The position numbers and the translations under genes are program-made. Positions 8,840 to 18,026 of a stretch of DNA of 22,868 bases are shown in pieces. Numbering within the stretch: the stretch's first letter is position 1; each line of letters starts with the position of its first letter. The notes below the pieces were generated by a model that searched no databases, was not told where the DNA came from, and worked only from the letters and a program-made list of their open reading frames with translations. Source of the stretch: an uncultured Desulfobacteraceae bacterium (GTDB taxonomy: Bacteria; Desulfobacterota; Desulfobacteria; Desulfobacterales; Desulfosalsimonadaceae); NCBI GenBank assembly GCA_964451355.1, contig CAYVIE010000034.1:1-22868 (forward strand). Reading direction: 5' to 3'.

Positions 8840-10228
8840 CTATCCATTCTCCTTGCCCGGCCGCATGATGCCGTATTTTTTCATCCGCTTCCATATGGTG
8901 ACCCTGCTTACGCCCAGGCGTTTGGCAGCCTTTGTCTGATTCCATCCCACGGATTCAAGGACACCCAAAAGCTCCTCTTTTTCATCAATCCGGTTGCCGG
9001 ATACAGGAAAAGCCGTTAAAGTGGCTTTTACCCGTTTTTTATCCCTGCCCCCCAGCTTTGGGGGAAGATGCGCTGTATCTATACTTCCGCCAGGACAAAG
9101 AACAAATGCATATTCGATAACGTTTCTTAGCTCCCGGATGTTTCCCGGCCACGGGTATTCTATCAAAAGATCCATGGCGGCCGGGGTTACGCCCAGAATC
9201 TTCTTGCCGGTGTTCCTGGAGCCCTGCTTGATGAAATGCTGAACCAGAAGTGGGATATCCTCTTTACGGTCAGCCAGCCTTGGAAGAAGTAACGGGAAAA
9301 CATTTATCCTGAAATAAAGATCCTCCCGGAACTTTCCCTCGCTGACAAGCGCCTCAATGTCCCGGTTGGTCGCGGAAACAATCCTGACATCAATGGGAAT
9401 GGGGCGGTGATCGCCTACCCTTTCGATGATCTTGTCCTCCAGGACCCTCAACAGCTTGACTTGCGTGCCGGGAGGGATATCGCCTATCTCGTCTAAAAAA
9501 ATCGTCCCCTCGTTAGCCGCCTCAAACCTGCCTATTCTTGTTCGATCCGCGCCAGTGAAGGCTCCTTTAACATGGCCGAAAAGTTCACTTTCAAGCAGAT
9601 TTTCATTCAGTGCGGCGCAGTTTACCTTAATGAAAGGCTTATCCTTCCTGGGACCTGCTTCATGTATTGCTCTTGCCGCCATCTCCTTGCCGGTCCCGCT
9701 CTCTCCAAGTATCATAACAGGAGCATCGGACTGGGCGACATTGGTGATCAGCTCGAACAGCTGTTGCATCACCGGGGTTTTCCCAACAATCCCATGGAAA
9801 CCCTCATCAAGGAAATAGGATTGTCTCAACTCTTGTATCAATCTCTGCTGGCGGACAACCTGCGAGATATCCGTAAGGATCTCAACAGCCCCAATAATCT
9901 CGCCCCGACTGTTCTTCAGCACTCTCGAGGTTTTGAGTATATGCACTGTCTTACGATCTTTGGTGGTTATGAGACATCTTTTATCCTTTACATAACCTAC
10001 TGAAAACATCTTACACCACTTTTCACCTGAAGACTCCCCGAAAAATTTACAGCCTGTGCAGTTGAGAATACGACATGTTCTGCCCACGAGTTCCTCCTGG
10101 CTATAGCCAGTGAGCGCCTCGGCCGCCGGGTTTGCCGCAACGATTCTGCCAGAAGTGTTAACAACGATAAGGCCGTCGTGCAATGTATCTAAGATAGCCT
10201 TCCAGTGCTTTGAAATCTCCATAAACAA
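8840..10228 (-). CDS. Sigma-54-dependent transcriptional activator (PAS sensor + AAA+ + Fis-type HTH), no receiver domain
   Basis: Walker A GESGTGKE, the GAFTGA sigma-54 contact loop, Walker B FLDEIGD and a C-terminal HTH (AAKRLGVSRVTIWKRMKKYGI) are present. The N-terminal PAS carries a C-x4-C-x2-C-x11-C-x12-C cluster. The start is either TTG at 10228 or ATG at 10222. Confidence 0.9.
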   Translation of the reverse strand: MFMEISKHWKAILDTLHDGLIVVNTSGRIVAANPAAEALTGYSQEELVGRTCRILNCTGCKFFGESSGEKWCKMFSVGYVKDKRCLITTKDRKTVHILKTSRVLKNSRGEIIGAVEILTDISQVVRQQRLIQELRQSYFLDEGFHGIVGKTPVMQQLFELITNVAQSDAPVMILGESGTGKEMAARAIHEAGPRKDKPFIKVNCAALNENLLESELFGHVKGAFTGADRTRIGRFEAANEGTIFLDEIGDIPPGTQVKLLRVLEDKIIERVGDHRPIPIDVRIVSATNRDIEALVSEGKFREDLYFRINVFPLLLPRLADRKEDIPLLVQHFIKQGSRNTGKKILGVTPAAMDLLIEYPWPGNIRELRNVIEYAFVLCPGGSIDTAHLPPKLGGRDKKRVKATLTAFPVSGNRIDEKEELLGVLESVGWNQTKAAKRLGVSRVTIWKRMKKYGIMRPGKENG

Positions 10229-10782: not shown

Positions 10783-10798
10783 TGGCATGATCTTTGCT
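10783..10798 (+). promoter_or_regulatory. Sigma-54 (-24/-12) promoter TGGCATGATCTTTGCT
   Basis: It matches the consensus TGGCAC-N5-TTGCW with one mismatch and has exact GG-N10-GC spacing. It lies 141 bp upstream of the outer-membrane protein ATG and is divergent from a sigma-54 activator gene. Confidence 0.75.
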
Positions 10799-10938: not shown

Positions 10939-12630
10939 ATGAATTTTTTAAAAAAATTTTTTCTATGGGGCTTATGCGCCCTGGTGCTTTCATGGCCCGC
11001 GGGAAAATCGATGGCAGCAGATGACATCGACGCCCTTAAGGAACAGATCCGTATTCTACAAAAAAAAGTGGAAAAACTGGAAAAGAATAACTCATGGAAC
11101 ACGGATGACATAGAGGATCTGTCAGGTAGGCTGGACAAGGCCGAGATGCATACGGCCACTGACAAGATTTCATTCGGGCTTGACTTCCGCACCAGAGCGG
11201 ACTCGATTCATTACAACGATATCCGCATAGCGCCACAGACTTTCACGGCCGCATTCTTTACTCCGTCCGCCATGGGCGGATTCAATGGCGCAACCCTGCC
11301 GGACATACAGGCCGCCATAGGGGCGATGGTGGCGGGTGGAATGGTGCCGGATGCTGAAAAATATGATGCTGATAACGACATAATATTCACCAATAAGCTT
11401 CGTCTCGAAATGTATGCAAGACTGAACTCACAGTTGAATTTCCAGGGACGCCTTGCCGCGTACAAGGTCTTCGGAGACAGCACCACTGTCAAGTTCAACC
11501 AGGGAAGCCTTGGGGATGTCACTTTCGACGGCACAACCTCGAGCCTCCCGCACGGAGACACGATCCACCTGGAACGCGCATACTTTGTCTACAAGTCCCA
11601 GATAGGCGATGTTCCTTATCATATATCTGTGGGCCGCAGGCCAGCAACAGACGGCCCCCCTCTTGAATACAGGGAATACAGCCTTGTGGGCGGTTCACCC
11701 CTTGCAACGATCATCAACTGGCAGTTCGACGGCGCATCACTGGGATTCAACCTGGAAGACGTAACCGGCATCCCGGGCGCGAGTTTCAAGCTCTGCTACG
11801 GGGTCGGCTATGAAAACGACTGGGGCAACTACACGTCTTTGGATTACGGCGGCGCTAACATAAAAGATGTCCATCTGTTCGGGTTTATAACAAAATTATA
11901 CGATGATGGTGAATCCACCAGCATAATGCTGAATTATGCACATGCATGGGATATCACCGATGGCTTCACAGGCGAGACAGTGATGCCTTTCATCGTGTCA
12001 AAACAGGATACAAACGGTGACGGCATTGACGAATATTATTTCGAGGCCAACACCGGTTCTTTTGTTTCGAGGATCGAGCCTACAGAAAATATCGGAGACT
12101 GGGACGCCGCATCACTTTTGATCCGGTCGAAAATCTCGACATCCACTGAGCCTGTTGACTGGTTCATTGCCGGATCCTGGACTCATACCAACCCATCCAA
12201 TATTTCAAAAAATCCCTTCTATGAAATTATGGGAATGGGCCTGCTCTCATCCAATGGAGAGCTGGAAGACCACGACGGCTACAGTGTTTATGCGGGCGTG
12301 ATCCTTCCCATGCCGGCATCTGGCCGTCTCGGCCTTGAATACAACTGGGGGTCCAAGTACTGGTTCAATTTCACAGGCGCAGAGGATTCACTTATCGCGA
12401 GCAAGCTCGCTGTAAGGGGTCAGGTATACGAGGCATACTATATACAGCCTGTGTTCGGCCGCAATTTTTTTGTAAAGGCGGGAACCCAGTTTTATGATTA
12501 CAAGTACACCGGAAGTGGTAATCCCCTGGGAGAACCTGTCAAGATTTCCGATGTAACGGCGCTAGACTCCATCAACCCGGTTATAGATGAAGTCTGGAAC
12601 TATTATCTTTCCGCAACCATGCGGTTCTAA
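10939..12630 (+). CDS. Outer-membrane beta-barrel protein with N-terminal coiled coil (possibly DUF3373-like)
   Basis: The signal peptide ends ...GKSMA/ADD. A heptad-like segment IDALKEQIRILQKKVEKLEKN follows. The body is aromatic- and Gly-rich with alternating residues, and the C-terminus ...YYLSATMRF ends in Phe, an OMP signature. A GGGAGG RBS is present. Confidence 0.7.
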   Translation: MNFLKKFFLWGLCALVLSWPAGKSMAADDIDALKEQIRILQKKVEKLEKNNSWNTDDIEDLSGRLDKAEMHTATDKISFGLDFRTRADSIHYNDIRIAPQTFTAAFFTPSAMGGFNGATLPDIQAAIGAMVAGGMVPDAEKYDADNDIIFTNKLRLEMYARLNSQLNFQGRLAAYKVFGDSTTVKFNQGSLGDVTFDGTTSSLPHGDTIHLERAYFVYKSQIGDVPYHISVGRRPATDGPPLEYREYSLVGGSPLATIINWQFDGASLGFNLEDVTGIPGASFKLCYGVGYENDWGNYTSLDYGGANIKDVHLFGFITKLYDDGESTSIMLNYAHAWDITDGFTGETVMPFIVSKQDTNGDGIDEYYFEANTGSFVSRIEPTENIGDWDAASLLIRSKISTSTEPVDWFIAGSWTHTNPSNISKNPFYEIMGMGLLSSNGELEDHDGYSVYAGVILPMPASGRLGLEYNWGSKYWFNFTGAEDSLIASKLAVRGQVYEAYYIQPVFGRNFFVKAGTQFYDYKYTGSGNPLGEPVKISDVTALDSINPVIDEVWNYYLSATMRF

Positions 12631-12653
12631 CACTGACCGCTGGATTATATATA

Positions 12654-12680
12654 AGGGGCAGGGATTTTTCTCCTGCCCCT
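12654..12680 (+). other. Intercistronic GC hairpin (aggggcagg / cctgcccct, 9-bp stem, 9-nt loop) between the OMP gene and yeeE
   Basis: Read directly. It starts 24 nt after the OMP stop. No T-tract follows, so it is more likely an mRNA stabiliser or partial attenuator than a full terminator. Confidence 0.5.
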
Positions 12681-12729
12681 CACTCTGACAGGGAACAAAA
12701 ATAATCATAATTAAATTGAAGAAACGATT

Positions 12730-13926
12730 ATGAAGGCATTACAAACCATAACTGAAGCCATAAAGACGGAACTGAAAAAGGCTTATGATACAGCCTTCGG
12801 GCGCACTTGGCCGGTGGTGACCGCAGGAATCCTGATCTCTGTCGTGGCTATATTCATGTTTTTATGGAACAGCCCGTGGGGTATAGCAGGAGGTTACAGA
12901 AGCTGGGGAGATTGGTTACTGTATCTTTCAGGGCTATCAGATAGCAAACCGCTATTCAAGCCATGGCAGCACCCCCTTTCAGTCTCCAACTTCGGCATCA
13001 TACTCGGTGCCTTGTCATCAGCTCTTATTGCCAGAGAATTTGCCATAAGAAAAGCACCTGCATGGGAATATGCCAAGGGAGCGGCCGGAGGAATCCTGAT
13101 GGGTATCGGGGCGGTTCTGGCTTCAGGCTGCAATGTGGGAGGTTTTTATTCGGCGATCGGGGTATTCTCGGCAGGAGGTTACGCCATGATGATCGGCCTG
13201 GGGGCTGGTGCATACCTGGGCCTGAAGTATCTTTTATGGGAAATGGAACACATTCCACAAAAAGCAATGAATGCCCCTGAGAAAAAAGGAAAATTGATGC
13301 AGGTTATGACCCGGATCGAACCATATTTCGGGGCGGTAATTATTTTTGCCGTTGTCATGGCTTTTTATGCATCGAGTTCCGATGAAAACTCGAAAACAGG
13401 GGGGCTATTGTTTTTTGGACTCCTTATCGGTCTTGTTATGCACAGAAGCAGGTTCTGCTTTGCCAGGGCTTTCCGCGAACCGCTCATGACAGGTGAATCA
13501 GACATGGTAAAGGCTGTCGCCGCAAGCCTCCTTATCTACGGTGCCGGCTCAGCCGTTATCAAGTGGAACTGGATGCAACCGCCTGAAATGGGAGTCTATC
13601 ATCCTTTCTGGGCCGGAAGCCTGTTTGGCGGACTGATATTCGGATTCGGTATGCTCCTGGCAGGAGGCTGCGCTTCGAGCACCTTGTGGCGGGCTGCTGA
13701 AGGACAGACCAAGCTCATGCTGACCCTGGCCTGCTTTGCAATAACAGACTCTGTTACACACAGGTTCATTACGGCTTATAACCTGAAAGAAAAACTCGGA
13801 ACCCCGTATTTTCTCCCCGATATTTTGGGGTGGAGTATCGCCGTGCCACTTCTTGTAGCAGTTATTTCTCTCTGGGTCATATGGGCTGACTGGAACGAGG
13901 AAACAGAACGCTTTGTGCTCTTTTAA
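12730..13926 (+). CDS. yeeE: YeeE/YedE family inner-membrane sulfur-compound (thiosulfate-type) transporter
   Basis: 398 aa polytopic protein with duplicated Gly-rich motifs bearing Cys (ASGCNVGG, AGGCASSTLW) and a third Cys in SRFCFARAF. It is immediately followed by a TusA/YeeD-type gene. Confidence 0.85.
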   Translation: MKALQTITEAIKTELKKAYDTAFGRTWPVVTAGILISVVAIFMFLWNSPWGIAGGYRSWGDWLLYLSGLSDSKPLFKPWQHPLSVSNFGIILGALSSALIAREFAIRKAPAWEYAKGAAGGILMGIGAVLASGCNVGGFYSAIGVFSAGGYAMMIGLGAGAYLGLKYLLWEMEHIPQKAMNAPEKKGKLMQVMTRIEPYFGAVIIFAVVMAFYASSSDENSKTGGLLFFGLLIGLVMHRSRFCFARAFREPLMTGESDMVKAVAASLLIYGAGSAVIKWNWMQPPEMGVYHPFWAGSLFGGLIFGFGMLLAGGCASSTLWRAAEGQTKLMLTLACFAITDSVTHRFITAYNLKEKLGTPYFLPDILGWSIAVPLLVAVISLWVIWADWNEETERFVLF

Positions 13927-13957
13927 CATAAAATTAAATTAACGAAAGGAAGAAACA

Positions 13958-14194
13958 ATGACAATCAAAGCAGATGAAACTCTTGACTTGAGAGGATTGA
14001 GCTGTCCCATGCCCATGCTCAAGACAAAAAAGAAGTTAAAGGGCATGGCAAAAGGGCAGATTCTGGAAGTATGGGGCACCGATCCTGGTTCAAAAAACGA
14101 CATACCAAACTTTGTGAAAAAATCCGGGGATGAACTCCTTGCTATGGAAGATCATCCAGACGGGTACACGCGCTACCTGATCAAGAAAGGATGA
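13958..14194 (+). CDS. tusA: TusA/SirA-family sulfur carrier protein
   Basis: 78 aa. LDLRGLSCPMPMLKTKKKL contains the CPxP active-site motif. The C-terminus YTRYLIKKG parallels my recollection of E. coli TusA (YRYLIRKGG). Confidence 0.92.
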   Translation: MTIKADETLDLRGLSCPMPMLKTKKKLKGMAKGQILEVWGTDPGSKNDIPNFVKKSGDELLAMEDHPDGYTRYLIKKG

Positions 14195-14250
14195 TGTTTT
14201 TAAACCATAGGTGACAATACATAAAAAACCATCTGCAGGGTGCAAGGATC

Positions 14251-14538
14251 ATGAAAAAAATCGCAGTTGTTATAAGAGATCCGCAACAACAGTACGAAGG
14301 CCTGAGGGTCAGTCTCGGAGCTTTACTTGACGAGGTTGAAGTGGAGATGTTCGTCCTCAATCATGAAATAGCTAATATGGACGAAGCATACAGGGACAAC
14401 ATGGAATTTCTTGATGAAATGGAGGGCAAACGTTTTTCAAACAATCCTGTAAATGTTGAAAAATATGGATTCACCTGGGCATCTGTCGGGGATATCGGTA
14501 AAAGGCTGGCCCGGGCTGATATAGTCATACCTTTCTGA
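14251..14538 (+). CDS. Small DsrE-fold protein, TusC/DsrF-like, Cys-free
   Basis: 95 aa. The N-terminus MKKIAVVI...EGLRVSLGALL and C-terminus LARADIVIPF parallel my recollection of E. coli TusC (MKRIAFVF...EGLDALLA ... LANYDVILRF). It contains no cysteine. Confidence 0.6.
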   Translation: MKKIAVVIRDPQQQYEGLRVSLGALLDEVEVEMFVLNHEIANMDEAYRDNMEFLDEMEGKRFSNNPVNVEKYGFTWASVGDIGKRLARADIVIPF

Positions 14539-14553
14539 TGAGTGAGGTGGATA

Positions 14554-14730
14554 ATGAAAGTTTTGCATCTGCTAAGATCTAAACCTGATGAGACAGTTGA
14601 GCGTCTCATAGAGGCCATGTCCGATGAGACGACTGAGACAACTGTTCTCCCACTTTTCGAAGGTGAGATCGACTGGTTGCGCCTCGTGGACGATATTTTT
14701 GCACACGACAAGGTAGTGTGCTGGTGGTGA
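14554..14730 (+). CDS. Very small TusB/DsrH-like protein
   Basis: 58 aa from the ATG at 14554, which has a GAGGTGG RBS; the ORF track uses a GTG at 14542. MKVLHLLRS... and the C-terminus IDWLRLVDDIFAHDKVVCWW parallel my recollection of E. coli TusB (MLHTLHRS ... IDYTDFVRLTVKHPSQMAW). Confidence 0.55.
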   Translation: MKVLHLLRSKPDETVERLIEAMSDETTETTVLPLFEGEIDWLRLVDDIFAHDKVVCWW

Positions 14731-14742
14731 AAGGAGATTCAA

Positions 14743-15048
14743 ATGGAAAAAACCCTGGGTATTTTAGTAGGGACAGACAAATTTCTAGACTGGGTTATCG
14801 CGGTTACCGATGCAGCTTTCCAAAAAGGTATAAAGGTTGAGATTTTTTTCACCGGCGCCGGGGTTAAGCTGACCCAGGATGCGGCCTTCGTGAATCTTGT
14901 CGGCAAGGCAAAGCTTTCAGTATGCGATGTCAGCTTCAGGGCTTATGGATTTTCCGGCGATGTTCCCGGGGTTGGTTTCAAGGACTTTGCAACGCAGGCG
15001 AGAAACGCGGAGATGATAAACAGGTGCGACAGATACCTTGTTTTCTGA
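14743..15048 (+). CDS. Small DsrE/TusD-like sulfurtransferase subunit with conserved cysteines
   Basis: 101 aa. LSVCDVSFRAYGF parallels the TusD active site LNICVAAALRRGV, and the C-terminus RCDRYLVF parallels TCDRVVQF (both E. coli sequences recalled from memory). An AAGGAG RBS is present. Confidence 0.7.
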   Translation: MEKTLGILVGTDKFLDWVIAVTDAAFQKGIKVEIFFTGAGVKLTQDAAFVNLVGKAKLSVCDVSFRAYGFSGDVPGVGFKDFATQARNAEMINRCDRYLVF

Positions 15049-15081
15049 ATACGCATTTAACCTTGATGTTACGTGAGTCCG

Positions 15082-15103
15082 GCTAATTATAGCTAATTAT
15101 AAT
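15082..15103 (+). promoter_or_regulatory. Tandem gctaattata x2 ending in a perfect TATAAT hexamer (possible internal promoter)
   Basis: Read directly in the AT-rich 142-nt gap between the dsrE-like gene and the cytochrome genes. No good -35 element lies at 17-bp spacing. Confidence 0.25.
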
Positions 15104-15190
15104 AGAATATTTCTTATGGGGATATATCATTATCCTTCATGGATTCCAGGAGAATTAAAATTGTAACAAATTGTTATGGAGGGAAACATA

Positions 15191-15520
15191 ATGAAAAAGA
15201 CATTGGTATTGCTGCTGTCTCTGACTTTAATGGTAGTTTTTGTAGGAACTGGTATCGCCTTTGATAAGAAAGGAAACGAAAAAAAAGGTAAATACTACTT
15301 CAGGAAAAACTGCAGGGTATGCCACCAGGCAGGCAAAAGCGCTCCCCCATTGAGTCCCAACAGCAAGACCCAGGCCCAGTGGGAACGCGCTTTTGAGAAG
15401 CATGAACGCCTCGAGTGCGCGGATGAATGGAAAAAACTTTCCGAAGACAAGTTAAACGATATCCTTACCTACCTGTATAACCATGCTTTCGATTCTCCAT
15501 CGCCGGCCACCTGCGGGTAA
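15191..15520 (+). CDS. Periplasmic monoheme c-type cytochrome
   Basis: Signal peptide MKKTLVLLLSLTLMVVFVGTGIAF and a single CRVCH heme motif. The ATG at 15191 follows a GGAGGG RBS; the ORF track starts at 15176. Confidence 0.8.
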   Translation: MKKTLVLLLSLTLMVVFVGTGIAFDKKGNEKKGKYYFRKNCRVCHQAGKSAPPLSPNSKTQAQWERAFEKHERLECADEWKKLSEDKLNDILTYLYNHAFDSPSPATCG

Positions 15521-15537
15521 ATAACAATAATAATATC

Positions 15538-15586
15538 ATGCATCTTTCCGAAAACAGGATCCATCATGCTTTTCGGAAAGATGCAT
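15538..15586 (+). other. Perfect 17-bp inverted repeat (atgcatctttccgaaaa / ttttcggaaagatgcat) with a 15-nt loop between the two cytochrome genes
   Basis: Read directly. It starts 18 nt after the monoheme cytochrome stop. No T-tract follows. Confidence 0.6.
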
Positions 15587-15662
15587 CCAGATGTTTAAAC
15601 TTAAACAGCAACCATAACATTGCAATATATATCGTCGATAGGGGGACAAGGAGGAAAAGCTG

Positions 15663-17285
15663 TTGGCACTAAAAAAGATCAAACCAATTGAATTGTTATG
15701 CCTTGTTATTGCCGGTTGTATTATCTTTTTGGGGTCATTTAGGTCCAGCATGGCAGAAGAAAAGACTCCTCCCGGCAAAACAATGGCAGACCAATCGCAA
15801 CTGTATGCTACAAAATGGAATACTGTGGATCACACCAAACTGGAAGCCCTGAAAGGCCCTTTTAACAGTGGCGAGGACATCACAAAAGCATGCCTGTCAT
15901 GCCACACAAAGGCCCAACACCAGTTTTTGCATGCTATCCACTGGACATGGCAATCGCCGTTCAAGAACTCAAAGGACTATGGCAAGGCCGGATATTCCAT
16001 AAATAATTTTTGTATCTCATCTAATAAAATGCATGACCAAGAATGCAACACCTGTCACATCGGGTGGGACGCGAAAAAAGATGGAATAAACTGCCTGAAA
16101 TGCCACAGCCAGGCCGATATTGATTGGTACGCCCAGCTCAAGGATTACAAGGAATTCATGGAGATGGGCGAAACAGAGCTGGCAGATGAAATCATGGCAG
16201 ATATCTTAAAAAATGTGGGCAAAATCGGCCTGCCGGAAAGACGCAATTGTGGTGAATGTCATTTCAACGGCGGCGGTGGAGAGGGTGTCAAGCATGGTGA
16301 TCTCGATGCATCCCTTATCAACCCAAAAAGAACATTGGATGTTCATATGGGGGTTGACGGCCAGAATTTCAGATGCACCCGCTGCCATACCACGGTTGAG
16401 CACATGATTGCAGGCCGTGTATATTCAACGCCCGCCACGAAAAAGCACCTGAGCCTGGTTCAAAACGATCTGGCCCCCAAGATAACATGCGAGGCTTGTC
16501 ATACGGCAACCCCGCACAACGACGTTAAACTAAACGATCATACCGACAAGGTTGCGTGCCAGAGCTGTCACATACCGACATTCGCCCGCGCACATGCGAC
16601 CCAGATGTGGTGGGACTGGTCCACAGCCGGAAAAACCAGGGATGGAAAGAAATACCAGGAAAAGGGAGCTTTCGGCAGGCCTGTCTACAAATCAATCAAG
16701 GGTGACTTCAGGTGGGAAAAGAATGTCGTGCCCGAGTATTTCTGGTATAATGGCTCTATAGAGTCGATAACCGCAAAGGAAATCATCGACCCATCCAGGC
16801 AGCCTATCTGGATCAGCCGCCCCGTAGGAAGCCGTGATGACCCAGAGTCCCGGATCTATCCATTCAAGATTCATTACGCAAAACAGCCCTATGACATGGA
16901 GAATAATATATTTGTCACACCGCTTCTTTCCGAGGAAAACAACGGCTTCTGGGAAACACTCGACTGGCAGGATTCTGTTTCCAGGGGCATGGAAATCATG
17001 GGGCTTCCCTACTCTGGCAAGATAGGATTCGTGGAAACCAACTATGTATTTCCCATCACGCACATGGTCGCACCCAAGGAAGACGCTCTGTCTTGCAATG
17101 CATGCCACTCAAGAGAGCATGGCAGGCTTTCGAAGCTGACAGGCTTTTATATGCCTCGCAGGGACCGCTTTCTTTTTCTGGACAGAGCTGGATGGGGGCT
17201 TGCAGCCGGAGCGCTTCTTGTTGTGCTCCTGCACGCCTTGGGAAGGATCTTTTCCTCGGCCATGAGGAAAAGCAAGGAGGATTGA
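15663..17285 (+). CDS. Octaheme c-type cytochrome, tetrathionate reductase (Otr) family-like, with N-terminal signal/anchor and C-terminal TM helix
   Basis: Eight CxxCH motifs at C77, C128, C144, C196, C238, C276, C299 and C478. The N-terminal DHTKLEAL...ITKACLSCHT...HWTW resembles my recollection of Shewanella Otr. There is no CxxCK or long-spacer heme motif. The TTG start follows an AAGGAGGA RBS. The C-terminal hydrophobic helix is GWGLAAGALLVVLLHALGRIF. Confidence 0.8.
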   Translation: MALKKIKPIELLCLVIAGCIIFLGSFRSSMAEEKTPPGKTMADQSQLYATKWNTVDHTKLEALKGPFNSGEDITKACLSCHTKAQHQFLHAIHWTWQSPFKNSKDYGKAGYSINNFCISSNKMHDQECNTCHIGWDAKKDGINCLKCHSQADIDWYAQLKDYKEFMEMGETELADEIMADILKNVGKIGLPERRNCGECHFNGGGGEGVKHGDLDASLINPKRTLDVHMGVDGQNFRCTRCHTTVEHMIAGRVYSTPATKKHLSLVQNDLAPKITCEACHTATPHNDVKLNDHTDKVACQSCHIPTFARAHATQMWWDWSTAGKTRDGKKYQEKGAFGRPVYKSIKGDFRWEKNVVPEYFWYNGSIESITAKEIIDPSRQPIWISRPVGSRDDPESRIYPFKIHYAKQPYDMENNIFVTPLLSEENNGFWETLDWQDSVSRGMEIMGLPYSGKIGFVETNYVFPITHMVAPKEDALSCNACHSREHGRLSKLTGFYMPRRDRFLFLDRAGWGLAAGALLVVLLHALGRIFSSAMRKSKED

Positions 17286-17287
17286 TC

Positions 17288-17950
17288 ATGGCAGAAAACA
17301 ACAACACTAAACTGATATATCTATATACACGTTACGAGCGCCTGTGGCACTGGCTTCAGATGGTTCTGATAGCCGTGTTGATGCTCACCGGCCTTGAAAT
17401 ACACGGTGTATTCGAATTTTTCGGATACCAAAAAGCTGTCAGTCTACATAATACAGTGGGAATTACATGGCTAATCGCCTTTTTCTTCTTTGTATTCTGG
17501 CTTTTTACCACCGGGGAATGGAAGCAGTATATCCCGACCACGAAAAGGCTCTTTTCCATGATCCGATATTATTCCTACGGAATATTCCGCGGTGAACCGC
17601 ATCCGTTTCCGAAGCGGAAAGAAGCGAAGCACAATCCGCTGCAAAGGCTTACGTATCTTGCCGTGGCCGCAGCGCTTCTCCCCTTGCAGATGATAACCGG
17701 CTTCTTGTACTGGGGATACAACAGCTGGGATGCGTGGGGAATAAAATCACTAACACTGGGCATGGTAGCTTTTGCCCATACCGCGCTTGCTTTTGCCATT
17801 CTGGTCTTTGTTATCATCCATGTCTACATGACAACAACTGGACACACTGTGTTCGCCCATATCAAATCCATGATCACCGGATACGAGGAGGTCGAGGCAA
17901 GCCATTATGCCCAGGAAATCTCCATCGTGAAACCCGAAGAATCACGTTGA
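17288..17950 (+). CDS. Membrane di-heme cytochrome b (Ni/Fe-hydrogenase/PhsC/FdnI-type quinol-interacting subunit)
   Basis: 220 aa from the ATG at 17288, which has an AAGGAGGA RBS and lies 2 nt after the octaheme stop. It has multiple TM helices with His residues in them (RLWHWLQ, LEIHG, SLHNTVG, FAHTALAFAILVFVIIHVYM). The ORF-track start at 17093 overlaps the upstream gene. Confidence 0.85.
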   Translation: MAENNNTKLIYLYTRYERLWHWLQMVLIAVLMLTGLEIHGVFEFFGYQKAVSLHNTVGITWLIAFFFFVFWLFTTGEWKQYIPTTKRLFSMIRYYSYGIFRGEPHPFPKRKEAKHNPLQRLTYLAVAAALLPLQMITGFLYWGYNSWDAWGIKSLTLGMVAFAHTALAFAILVFVIIHVYMTTTGHTVFAHIKSMITGYEEVEASHYAQEISIVKPEESR

Positions 17951-17978: not shown

Positions 17979-18026
17979 CGGGGGATTCCACTTCTGCATT
18001 ACAAAACGGAATCCCCCGTTTTTTTT
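17979..18026 (+). terminator. Rho-independent terminator closing the sulfur/cytochrome cluster
   Basis: An 11-bp stem cgggggattcc / ggaatcccccg with an 18-nt loop is followed by T8. It sits between convergent genes. Confidence 0.8.

Follow-up and report, generated by a model that had tools for sequence, protein, structure and literature searches.

The window analyzed here is a 22,868-nucleotide (nt) stretch of DNA from an uncultured Desulfobacteraceae bacterium (GenBank assembly GCA_964451355.1, contig CAYVIE010000034.1, positions 1–22,868 of the forward strand). It carries a trio of small genes, dsrF, dsrH and dsrE, which very probably belongs to the DsrEFH type II family of sulfur-transfer proteins. 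All three genes lie on the + strand: dsrF at 14251–14538 (95 amino acids (aa), without Cys), dsrH at 14554–14730 (58 aa from its ATG, with its Cys at C56), and dsrE at 14743–15048 (101 aa, with C61 and C95, the former being the predicted sulfur-binding residue). The gaps are 56 nt from the upstream tusA to dsrF, 15 nt from dsrF to dsrH, and 12 nt from dsrH to dsrE, and yeeE, tusA and the trio make up a run of five co-directional genes at 12730–15048. The 58-aa open reading frame (ORF) has an alternative start at GTG 14542, which gives the longest version in the ORF list (62 aa); ATG 14554 is preceded by a GAGGTGG Shine-Dalgarno sequence, and the GTG falls within that very site. As a 1:1:1 trimer, the trio would have an expected mass of ~29 kDa (101 + 95 + 58 aa). 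An earlier note on this DNA, made from the sequence alone, had described three tightly packed ORFs of 95, 58 and 101 aa in the order F-like, H-like, E-like, each 20–40% shorter than its counterpart in Escherichia coli. Positions, lengths and order were all confirmed, as were the lengths of E. coli TusC, TusB and TusD when re-checked (119, 95 and 128 aa, respectively).

All three ORFs are real genes under purifying selection. Loci with the gene order of the window came mostly from a single scan, as its top 80 matches, and tblastn located the counterparts of the 58-aa protein in related loci. The 58-aa ORF was intact in 79 of the 80 related loci (54–59 aa), and the start codon at the matching position was ATG in 78 of these 79 homologues and TTG in one. 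Median dN/dS values were 0.08 for dsrF, 0.27 for dsrH and 0.12 for dsrE, and the third codon position was the most variable in each gene. The coding conservation of the 58-aa ORF, the lack of which would have refuted the reading of the earlier note, is thus borne out. The 101-aa protein has 478 database homologues, nearly all of 101 aa, and the 95-aa protein has 340, nearly all of 95 aa. For the 58-aa protein, only 26 called homologues (clusters) were found, whereas a profile search of 1.8 billion representatives recovered 443 members of its family at E ≤ 0.001, mostly of 55–58 aa. The small number of called copies compared with the many that are present fits the earlier remark that a gene of 58 aa is easily missed by gene callers.

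The E, F and H assignments of the 101-, 95- and 58-aa proteins hold. The 101-aa protein passed the Pfam DsrE model (24.2 bits; cut-off 22.7), a match from which its DsrE/F-like fold is predicted. The 95-aa protein scored below the cut-off of the Pfam DsrE/F model (15.4 bits); its AlphaFold2 model was highly confident (pLDDT 97.2), and the best Foldseek match in the Protein Data Bank (PDB) was YchN (1jx7; E 8.5e-6, TMq 0.78), followed by the DsrE-like proteins 3pnx, 2pd2 and 2qs7 (overall TMq range 0.69–0.78). Furthermore, the hidden Markov model (HMM) of its family matched the second gene of loci that are arranged in the order E-F-H. The 58-aa protein matched nothing in Pfam (E ≤ 1) or NCBIfam, including the DsrH family PF04077. 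Its AlphaFold2 model, a beta-alpha-beta-alpha-beta arrangement, was also confident (pLDDT 93.5), but Foldseek returned no significant match for it, the best being at E 0.09 to unrelated Rossmann-like pieces. Structure prediction, proposed in the earlier note as a check on the DsrE/DsrH fold, therefore supported the DsrE/F fold of the F-like subunit and left the H-like one without a significant structural relative.

What points to DsrH for the 58-aa protein is profile comparison, together with an 86-aa intermediate described below. When compared by hhalign with a canonical DsrH profile (ten PF04077 DsrH proteins plus TusB), the 58-aa family profile scored 27.5 (P 5e-5), whereas, against the same target, 20 column shuffles reached 14.8 at most, the reversed profile 11.6, the E profile 13.6 and the F profile 10.9. 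The alignment paired residues 35–57 of the 58-aa protein with residues 73–95 of TusB, the same columns as in a parallel that the earlier note had drawn. Searches with the family profiles against the single E. coli TusB, TusC and TusD sequences found nothing significant, and when PDB chains were searched, the family profiles of E and H matched none, and the 101-aa protein gave only a non-significant match to DsrH of 2HY5 (E 0.54). Of the parallels that the note drew between the termini of the trio and those of the E. coli proteins, the one at the C-terminus of the H-like protein was thus recovered, through the canonical profile, but the others were not, and, taken alone, these parallels do not stand as evidence for the identity of the trio.

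The trio is of a kind already published, and its novelty is low. The name DsrEFH type II comes from a study of Electronema aureum GS by Plum-Jensen et al. (ISME J, May 2026; PMC13293266), in which the three gene products, tagged on DsrE (N-terminus) or DsrH (C-terminus), co-purified in a 1:1:1 ratio. Persulfidated TusA loads DsrE alone, and a Cys67Ser substitution abolishes this loading; the abstract names Cys67 as the residue active in sulfur transfer, and, in the paper's model, the sulfur is handed on to DsrC (PMC13293266). The same study counted 985 genomes with type II genes, most of which (73.9% of the published genomes) also have dsrAB of the reductive type, and the sulfur-binding Cys of DsrE is kept in 99.3% of the published sets. 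Formerly, the system was known from sulfur disproportionators as the YTD cluster (yeeE-tusA-dsrE-like-chp-chp), with proteins called DsrE-like, Chp1 and Chp2 (PMC13293266). In March 2026, the YTD trio of cable bacteria was independently modelled as a DsrEFH-like double trimer (PMC13047784). Experiments of the kind proposed in the earlier note have, therefore, already been done on the E. aureum homologue (PMC13293266).

Membership in this family can be traced through two isolates. Table S5 of PMC13293266 lists Desulfocicer vacuolatum DSM 3385 and Desulfosarcina widdelii PP31 as carrying "YeeE-TusA-DsrEFH type II". Each of these genomes has a single DsrE-II locus (L050 and L065, respectively), and the DsrE encoded there is 64–66% identical to that of the window and falls within the same clade. 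The published mutagenesis primer sequence for E. aureum dsrE had no match in the retrieved loci, so the link to PMC13293266 is drawn through these Table S5 isolates. In addition, HMMs built from the window's families found E, F and H beside tusA/yeeE in 62 other Desulfobacterota loci. The sizes fall in the same ranges whatever the gene order (56–63 aa for H and 100–112 aa for E). Small subunits are, accordingly, the norm of type II, and the window shows no special reduction: the miniaturization claimed in the earlier note was correct as to size but is not a local peculiarity. The observation that the F-like protein has no Cys and that only the E-like one has a Cys at the catalytic position was upheld. 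Across the alignment of 140 trios, which covers both gene orders, Cys61 of DsrE is present in all 140, whereas Cys95 varies, and the position of C56 in DsrH is occupied by either Cys or Ser across the family.

What sets the window apart within type II is the order of its genes. Only complete trios entered the order counts and the tree, loci with an incomplete trio being left out; the F-H-E rows came mostly from the scan described above, whereas the phylum was sampled evenly for the E-F-H rows. In the window's clade, each of the 78 complete loci, one of which is the window itself, has the order F-H-E, whereas all 62 other complete Desulfobacterota loci have the order E-F-H. A tree built from the concatenated E, F and H sequences placed the F-H-E loci in a single clade without exception (support 0.996). 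The permuted order is, therefore, real and clade-specific, a rotation from E-F-H to F-H-E within a monophyletic sub-clade. The survey of homologues proposed in the earlier note thus found both the lengths (across hundreds of proteins) and the order to be kept; the permutation that the note had described is special, but it is a property of one clade and not of this genome alone. We did not find the F-H-E order stated in the main text of PMC13293266. D. vacuolatum and D. widdelii both have it. Table S5 contains one odd entry, "DsrHFEE" (PMC13293266). In the Desulfobulbaceae, E comes first, the DsrE-2 gene GF1_30710 following TusA (Desulfolithobacter study). Identities between the window proteins and their homologues of the E-F-H order are 30–55% for E, 15–61% for F and 30–53% for H.

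The F-H-E clade is centered on Desulfobacterales, with records of Desulfonema, Desulfosarcina, Desulfocicer and Desulfobacula, among others. Other records in it carry the labels Desulfonatronovibrio, Desulfonatronospira, Desulfohalobiaceae, Desulfovermiculus and Desulfovibrionales (L042, L044, L062, L064, L069, L075, L081, L082 and L085). The presence of these other-class records among a Desulfobacterales majority may reflect transfer between classes. We also observed that dsrH and dsrE are separated, in 18 of the 80 loci of the F-H-E type, by a conserved ~160-aa gene without a Pfam family, giving the arrangement F-H-X-E (for example, L050:3509-3991 and L033:2245-2751). These loci include that of Desulfocicer vacuolatum and records of the Desulfohalobiaceae/Desulfonatronovibrio type; the extra gene is absent from the window.

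The type II system of E. aureum is the closest of the named systems. Like it, the window has three small subunits beside tusA/yeeE, a conserved Cys only in DsrE and a small DsrH (~57–63 aa in this family) that the Pfam DsrH model does not match, in a genome with reductive-type dsrAB, dsrD and dsrC. Unlike it, the window has the order F-H-E, and its active-site residue is Cys61 instead of Cys67; the clade of the window often has genes for DUF3373, cytochrome c and an octahaem cytochrome adjoining the trio. The 101-aa E also differs from that of E-F-H-order homologues with an ICADSY-type Cys motif (~110 aa). By analogy, the window trio would share with the Allochromatium vinosum type I DsrEFH (PDB 2HY5) the fold family, the heterotrimer, the active Cys in DsrE and the TusA-to-DsrE-to-DsrC logic. 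However, the window subunits are 20–40% smaller and in rotated order, E-F-H (D-C-B) being that of type I and TusBCD, the trio is tied to reductive and not oxidative dsrAB, and DsrH lacks an internal stretch of ~36 residues, Cys20 and a PF04077 match; the H/B subunit of type I and TusBCD is ~95–102 aa long and belongs to PF04077, compared with 58 aa in the window. The architecture, the TusA donor and the single active Cys in the D/E subunit would likewise be common to E. coli TusBCD (PDB 2D1P), from which the trio differs in size (101/95/58 aa versus 128/119/95 aa), in the absence of a significant direct sequence match, and in its neighbors: yeeE, tusA and cytochromes, as against the tRNA thiolation role and rpsL neighbor in E. 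coli.

The trio lies in the middle of a larger set of nine co-directional genes at 10939–17950. The first of these encodes a DUF3373 outer-membrane protein (10939–12630, + strand, 563 aa; PF11853, 421 bits). It is followed by the yeeE/yedE-family gene for a sulfur-compound transporter (12730–13926, + strand, 398 aa; PF04143, 178 bits) and by the gene for the sulfur carrier TusA (13958–14194, + strand, 78 aa; PF01206, 91 bits), which has Cys16 in a CPMP motif. In NCBIfam, the YeeE protein matched YedE/FdhT at 130 bits, short of the cut-off of 350, and, likewise below threshold, the thiosulfate transporter TsuA/YeeE models. Downstream of the trio are genes for a monohaem cytochrome c (15176–15520, + strand, 114 aa; PF13442, one CxxCH), an Otr-like octahaem cytochrome c (15663–17285, + strand, 540 aa; PF11783 and PF14522, eight CxxCH) and a cytochrome b561-type membrane subunit (17288–17950, + strand; PF01292, 103 bits), the last of which has its ATG 2 nt past the stop codon of the octahaem gene, behind an AAGGAGG Shine-Dalgarno sequence. 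A PAS/sigma-54 activator gene (8840–10228, − strand) is divergent from the module.

How far is this arrangement shared by the clade? Directly upstream of the trio, tusA was found in 63 of 78 loci of the clade, and yeeE lay upstream in 57 of 78. The remaining neighbor frequencies were counted only in loci with enough flank. A cytochrome c gene lies directly downstream of the trio in 38 of 76 F-H-E loci, compared with 0 of 56 E-F-H loci, and an octahaem cytochrome gene is present in 15 of the 67 F-H-E loci with enough downstream flank. DUF3373 is upstream in 17 of 38 F-H-E loci, a count with no counterpart for the E-F-H loci, all of which have too little upstream flank for comparison. These data confirm the gene content of the module and show that the linkage to cytochrome c is clade-specific. 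In four loci (L009, L025, L030 and L046), DUF3373 is followed directly by dsrF-dsrH-dsrE and cytochrome c, with no yeeE or tusA between, which suggests that the tie of the trio to the module can be tighter than that to YeeE/TusA.

At 10783–10797, beside the divergent activator gene and ~140 nt upstream of the gene for the DUF3373 protein, there is a sigma-54-like −24/−12 site with one mismatch. It does not establish a sigma-54 promoter, as the two one-mismatch sites in the window are what shuffled sequence is expected to give. A sigma-70 promoter scan of the window was likewise at chance level, and so was a terminator scan, in which a terminator-like hairpin appeared at 18003–18022. One might speculate that the F-H-E clade is a functionally distinct type II variant, in which an operon for a DUF3373 outer-membrane barrel, YeeE, TusA, DsrFHE, the monohaem and octahaem cytochromes and the cytochrome b, possibly controlled by sigma-54, spans the envelope and directly couples the periplasmic conversion of a sulfur compound (tetrathionate, thiosulfate or polysulfide) to a cytoplasmic relay into Dsr; we hold this proposal to be doubtful for now.

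The host is a sulfate-reducer-type Desulfobacterales genome with reductive-type dsrAB. It contains dsrA and dsrB followed by dsrD, and dsrC is present; no match to the DsrH family PF04077 was found anywhere in this genome. At G000:C13:26110-27425, the match to the dsrA model is split into two overlapping parts that lie in different frames (model positions 1–352 and 305–402); toward its 3′ end, dsrA may thus contain a frameshift or an error of assembly.

In such a cell, how might the trio work? YeeE would import a sulfur compound, thiosulfate or polysulfide, through the inner membrane, and Cys16 of TusA would take up the sulfane sulfur as a persulfide and pass it to Cys61 of the 101-aa DsrE. 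DsrE would be held in a 1:1:1 trimer in which the Cys-free 95-aa DsrF and the 58-aa DsrH serve as the scaffold, and it would deliver the sulfur to DsrC and, through it, to DsrMK/DsrAB. For the window locus, we infer trimer formation and the TusA-to-DsrE transfer by analogy with the E. aureum experiments and the DsrE-to-DsrC transfer from the model in PMC13293266; what YeeE imports and which way the sulfur flows (sulfur oxidation or disproportionation, via reductive-type DsrAB run in reverse) are likewise presumed. The stripped-down heterotrimer-type relay that the earlier note had suggested, with its E-like Cys and TusA partner, thus finds support by homology with the E. aureum system (PMC13293266) and through family membership.

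Taken together, we are confident that the trio is the dsrF-dsrH-dsrE of a DsrEFH type II system that belongs to a rotated sub-clade and would act in a YeeE-TusA-DsrE-DsrC relay. Several points weigh against this conclusion. The experimental support all comes from E. aureum, which lies outside the window's locus and its sub-clade; the operon characterized in that cable bacterium has the order E-F-H, and the window proteins share only the modest identities given above with homologues of that order. Furthermore, Cys20, which is needed in the DsrH of A. vinosum, is missing from type II DsrH (PMC13047784), and the physiological role of the system is disputed between PMC13293266 and PMC13047784.

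This dispute bears on the alternative that we take most seriously, in which the relay is the same but its job is different: it would accept sulfur from thiosulfate uptake and decomposition by YeeE/YeeD (TusA) and take part in the disproportionation of thiosulfate or sulfur, or in the use of thiosulfate, instead of in sulfide oxidation. Such a role was argued in PMC13047784, and the five YTD proteins are reported to be more abundant in Desulfolithobacter during thiosulfate disproportionation. The sub-threshold matches of the window YeeE to thiosulfate-transporter models and the adjoining Otr-like octahaem cytochrome point the same way. On the other hand, only 25 of 63 cultured disproportionators have type II, with no correlation with the substrate used, and the in vitro transfers began from polysulfide-loaded proteins (PMC13293266). 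Most isolates of the clade, moreover, are described simply as sulfate reducers. A thiosulfate persulfidation test appears in Fig. S7 of PMC13293266, the legend of which does not reveal the outcome. On balance, we regard a thiosulfate role as a plausible possibility that falls short of being probable.

Could the trio instead be only a structural analogue of DsrEFH, of independent origin, with the labels F and H expressing a mere likeness of shape, as was suggested in PMC13047784? Identity to type I is below 25–30%, the F and H proteins of cable bacteria fail to align properly with their canonical counterparts according to the literature, Pfam misses H and finds F only below threshold, and the comparison with the single E. 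coli Tus sequences found nothing. However, E is above the Pfam DsrE cut-off, and the H profile matches canonical DsrH well over the shuffled, reversed and cross-subunit controls. Intermediates between the two types also exist. At L158:140-2410 (genome G048, from the phylum sample; also in G002), one strand carries a tandem of two DsrEFH sets: a type-II-like set, E102-F114-H86, and a canonical-looking set, E117-F116-H90, followed by TusA. In the first set, both ends of H86 (residues 1–29 and 66–86) match the HMM of the 58-aa family (46.5 bits), and H86 also matches Pfam PF04077 above its cut-off (32.4 bits), while E102 and F114 match the window-family HMMs (34 and 17 bits) and, above cut-off, Pfam DsrE/F. 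H86 joins the motifs seen at the two termini of the 58-aa family to a canonical middle of 36 extra residues, and type II DsrH therefore looks like a canonical DsrH from which ~36 internal residues have been removed. These intermediates support, at the level of sequence comparison, common descent of types I and II, with type II as a reduced true homologue, a matter that the two 2026 papers (PMC13293266 and PMC13047784) leave open or dispute. An independent origin thus seems improbable to us.

The E. coli TusA-TusBCD-TusE proteins form a relay for tRNA 2-thiouridine synthesis, and DsrC is a homologue of TusE. With the fold family and the TusA partner in common as well, the trio might be thought to serve tRNA thiolation and not dissimilatory sulfur metabolism. 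We consider this very unlikely: the trio adjoins yeeE/tusA in most loci and never translation genes, whereas E. coli tusBCD lies beside rpsL; in the window's clade, it is linked to cytochromes; and the distribution of type II follows genomes with reductive dsrAB (PMC13293266). Finally, the notion that the 58-aa ORF has stayed open by chance, or that an antisense ORF of 116 aa (14361–14711, − strand) is the true gene, may appeal to its shortness, its lack of a Pfam match and its 26 called clusters against 340–478 for its neighbors, but it is already refuted by the conservation data, as the ORF is intact with length and start kept in nearly all relatives, has the dN/dS of 0.27 and the third-position variability given above, has a confident predicted fold and counts 443 family representatives, while the antisense frame is not kept open (median stop-free run of 87 codons; at least 100 in only 22 of 75 loci) and was rejected as a gene.

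According to a proposal of 2026, DsrEFH type II is the sulfur transferase that had been missing for sulfur oxidation or disproportionation with a "reductive" DsrAB, a proposal that alters how the genomes of sulfate reducers are read. The window adds no new principle to it, and the system can be recovered from sequence alone by a reader. Annotation pipelines that expect the order E-F-H, or that discard ORFs of fewer than 60 aa, will miss or mislabel the F-H-E trio. The usable additions from this locus and its relatives are the rotated-order clade centered on the Desulfobacterales, its linkage to outer-membrane and cytochrome genes, and the intermediates between type I and type II.

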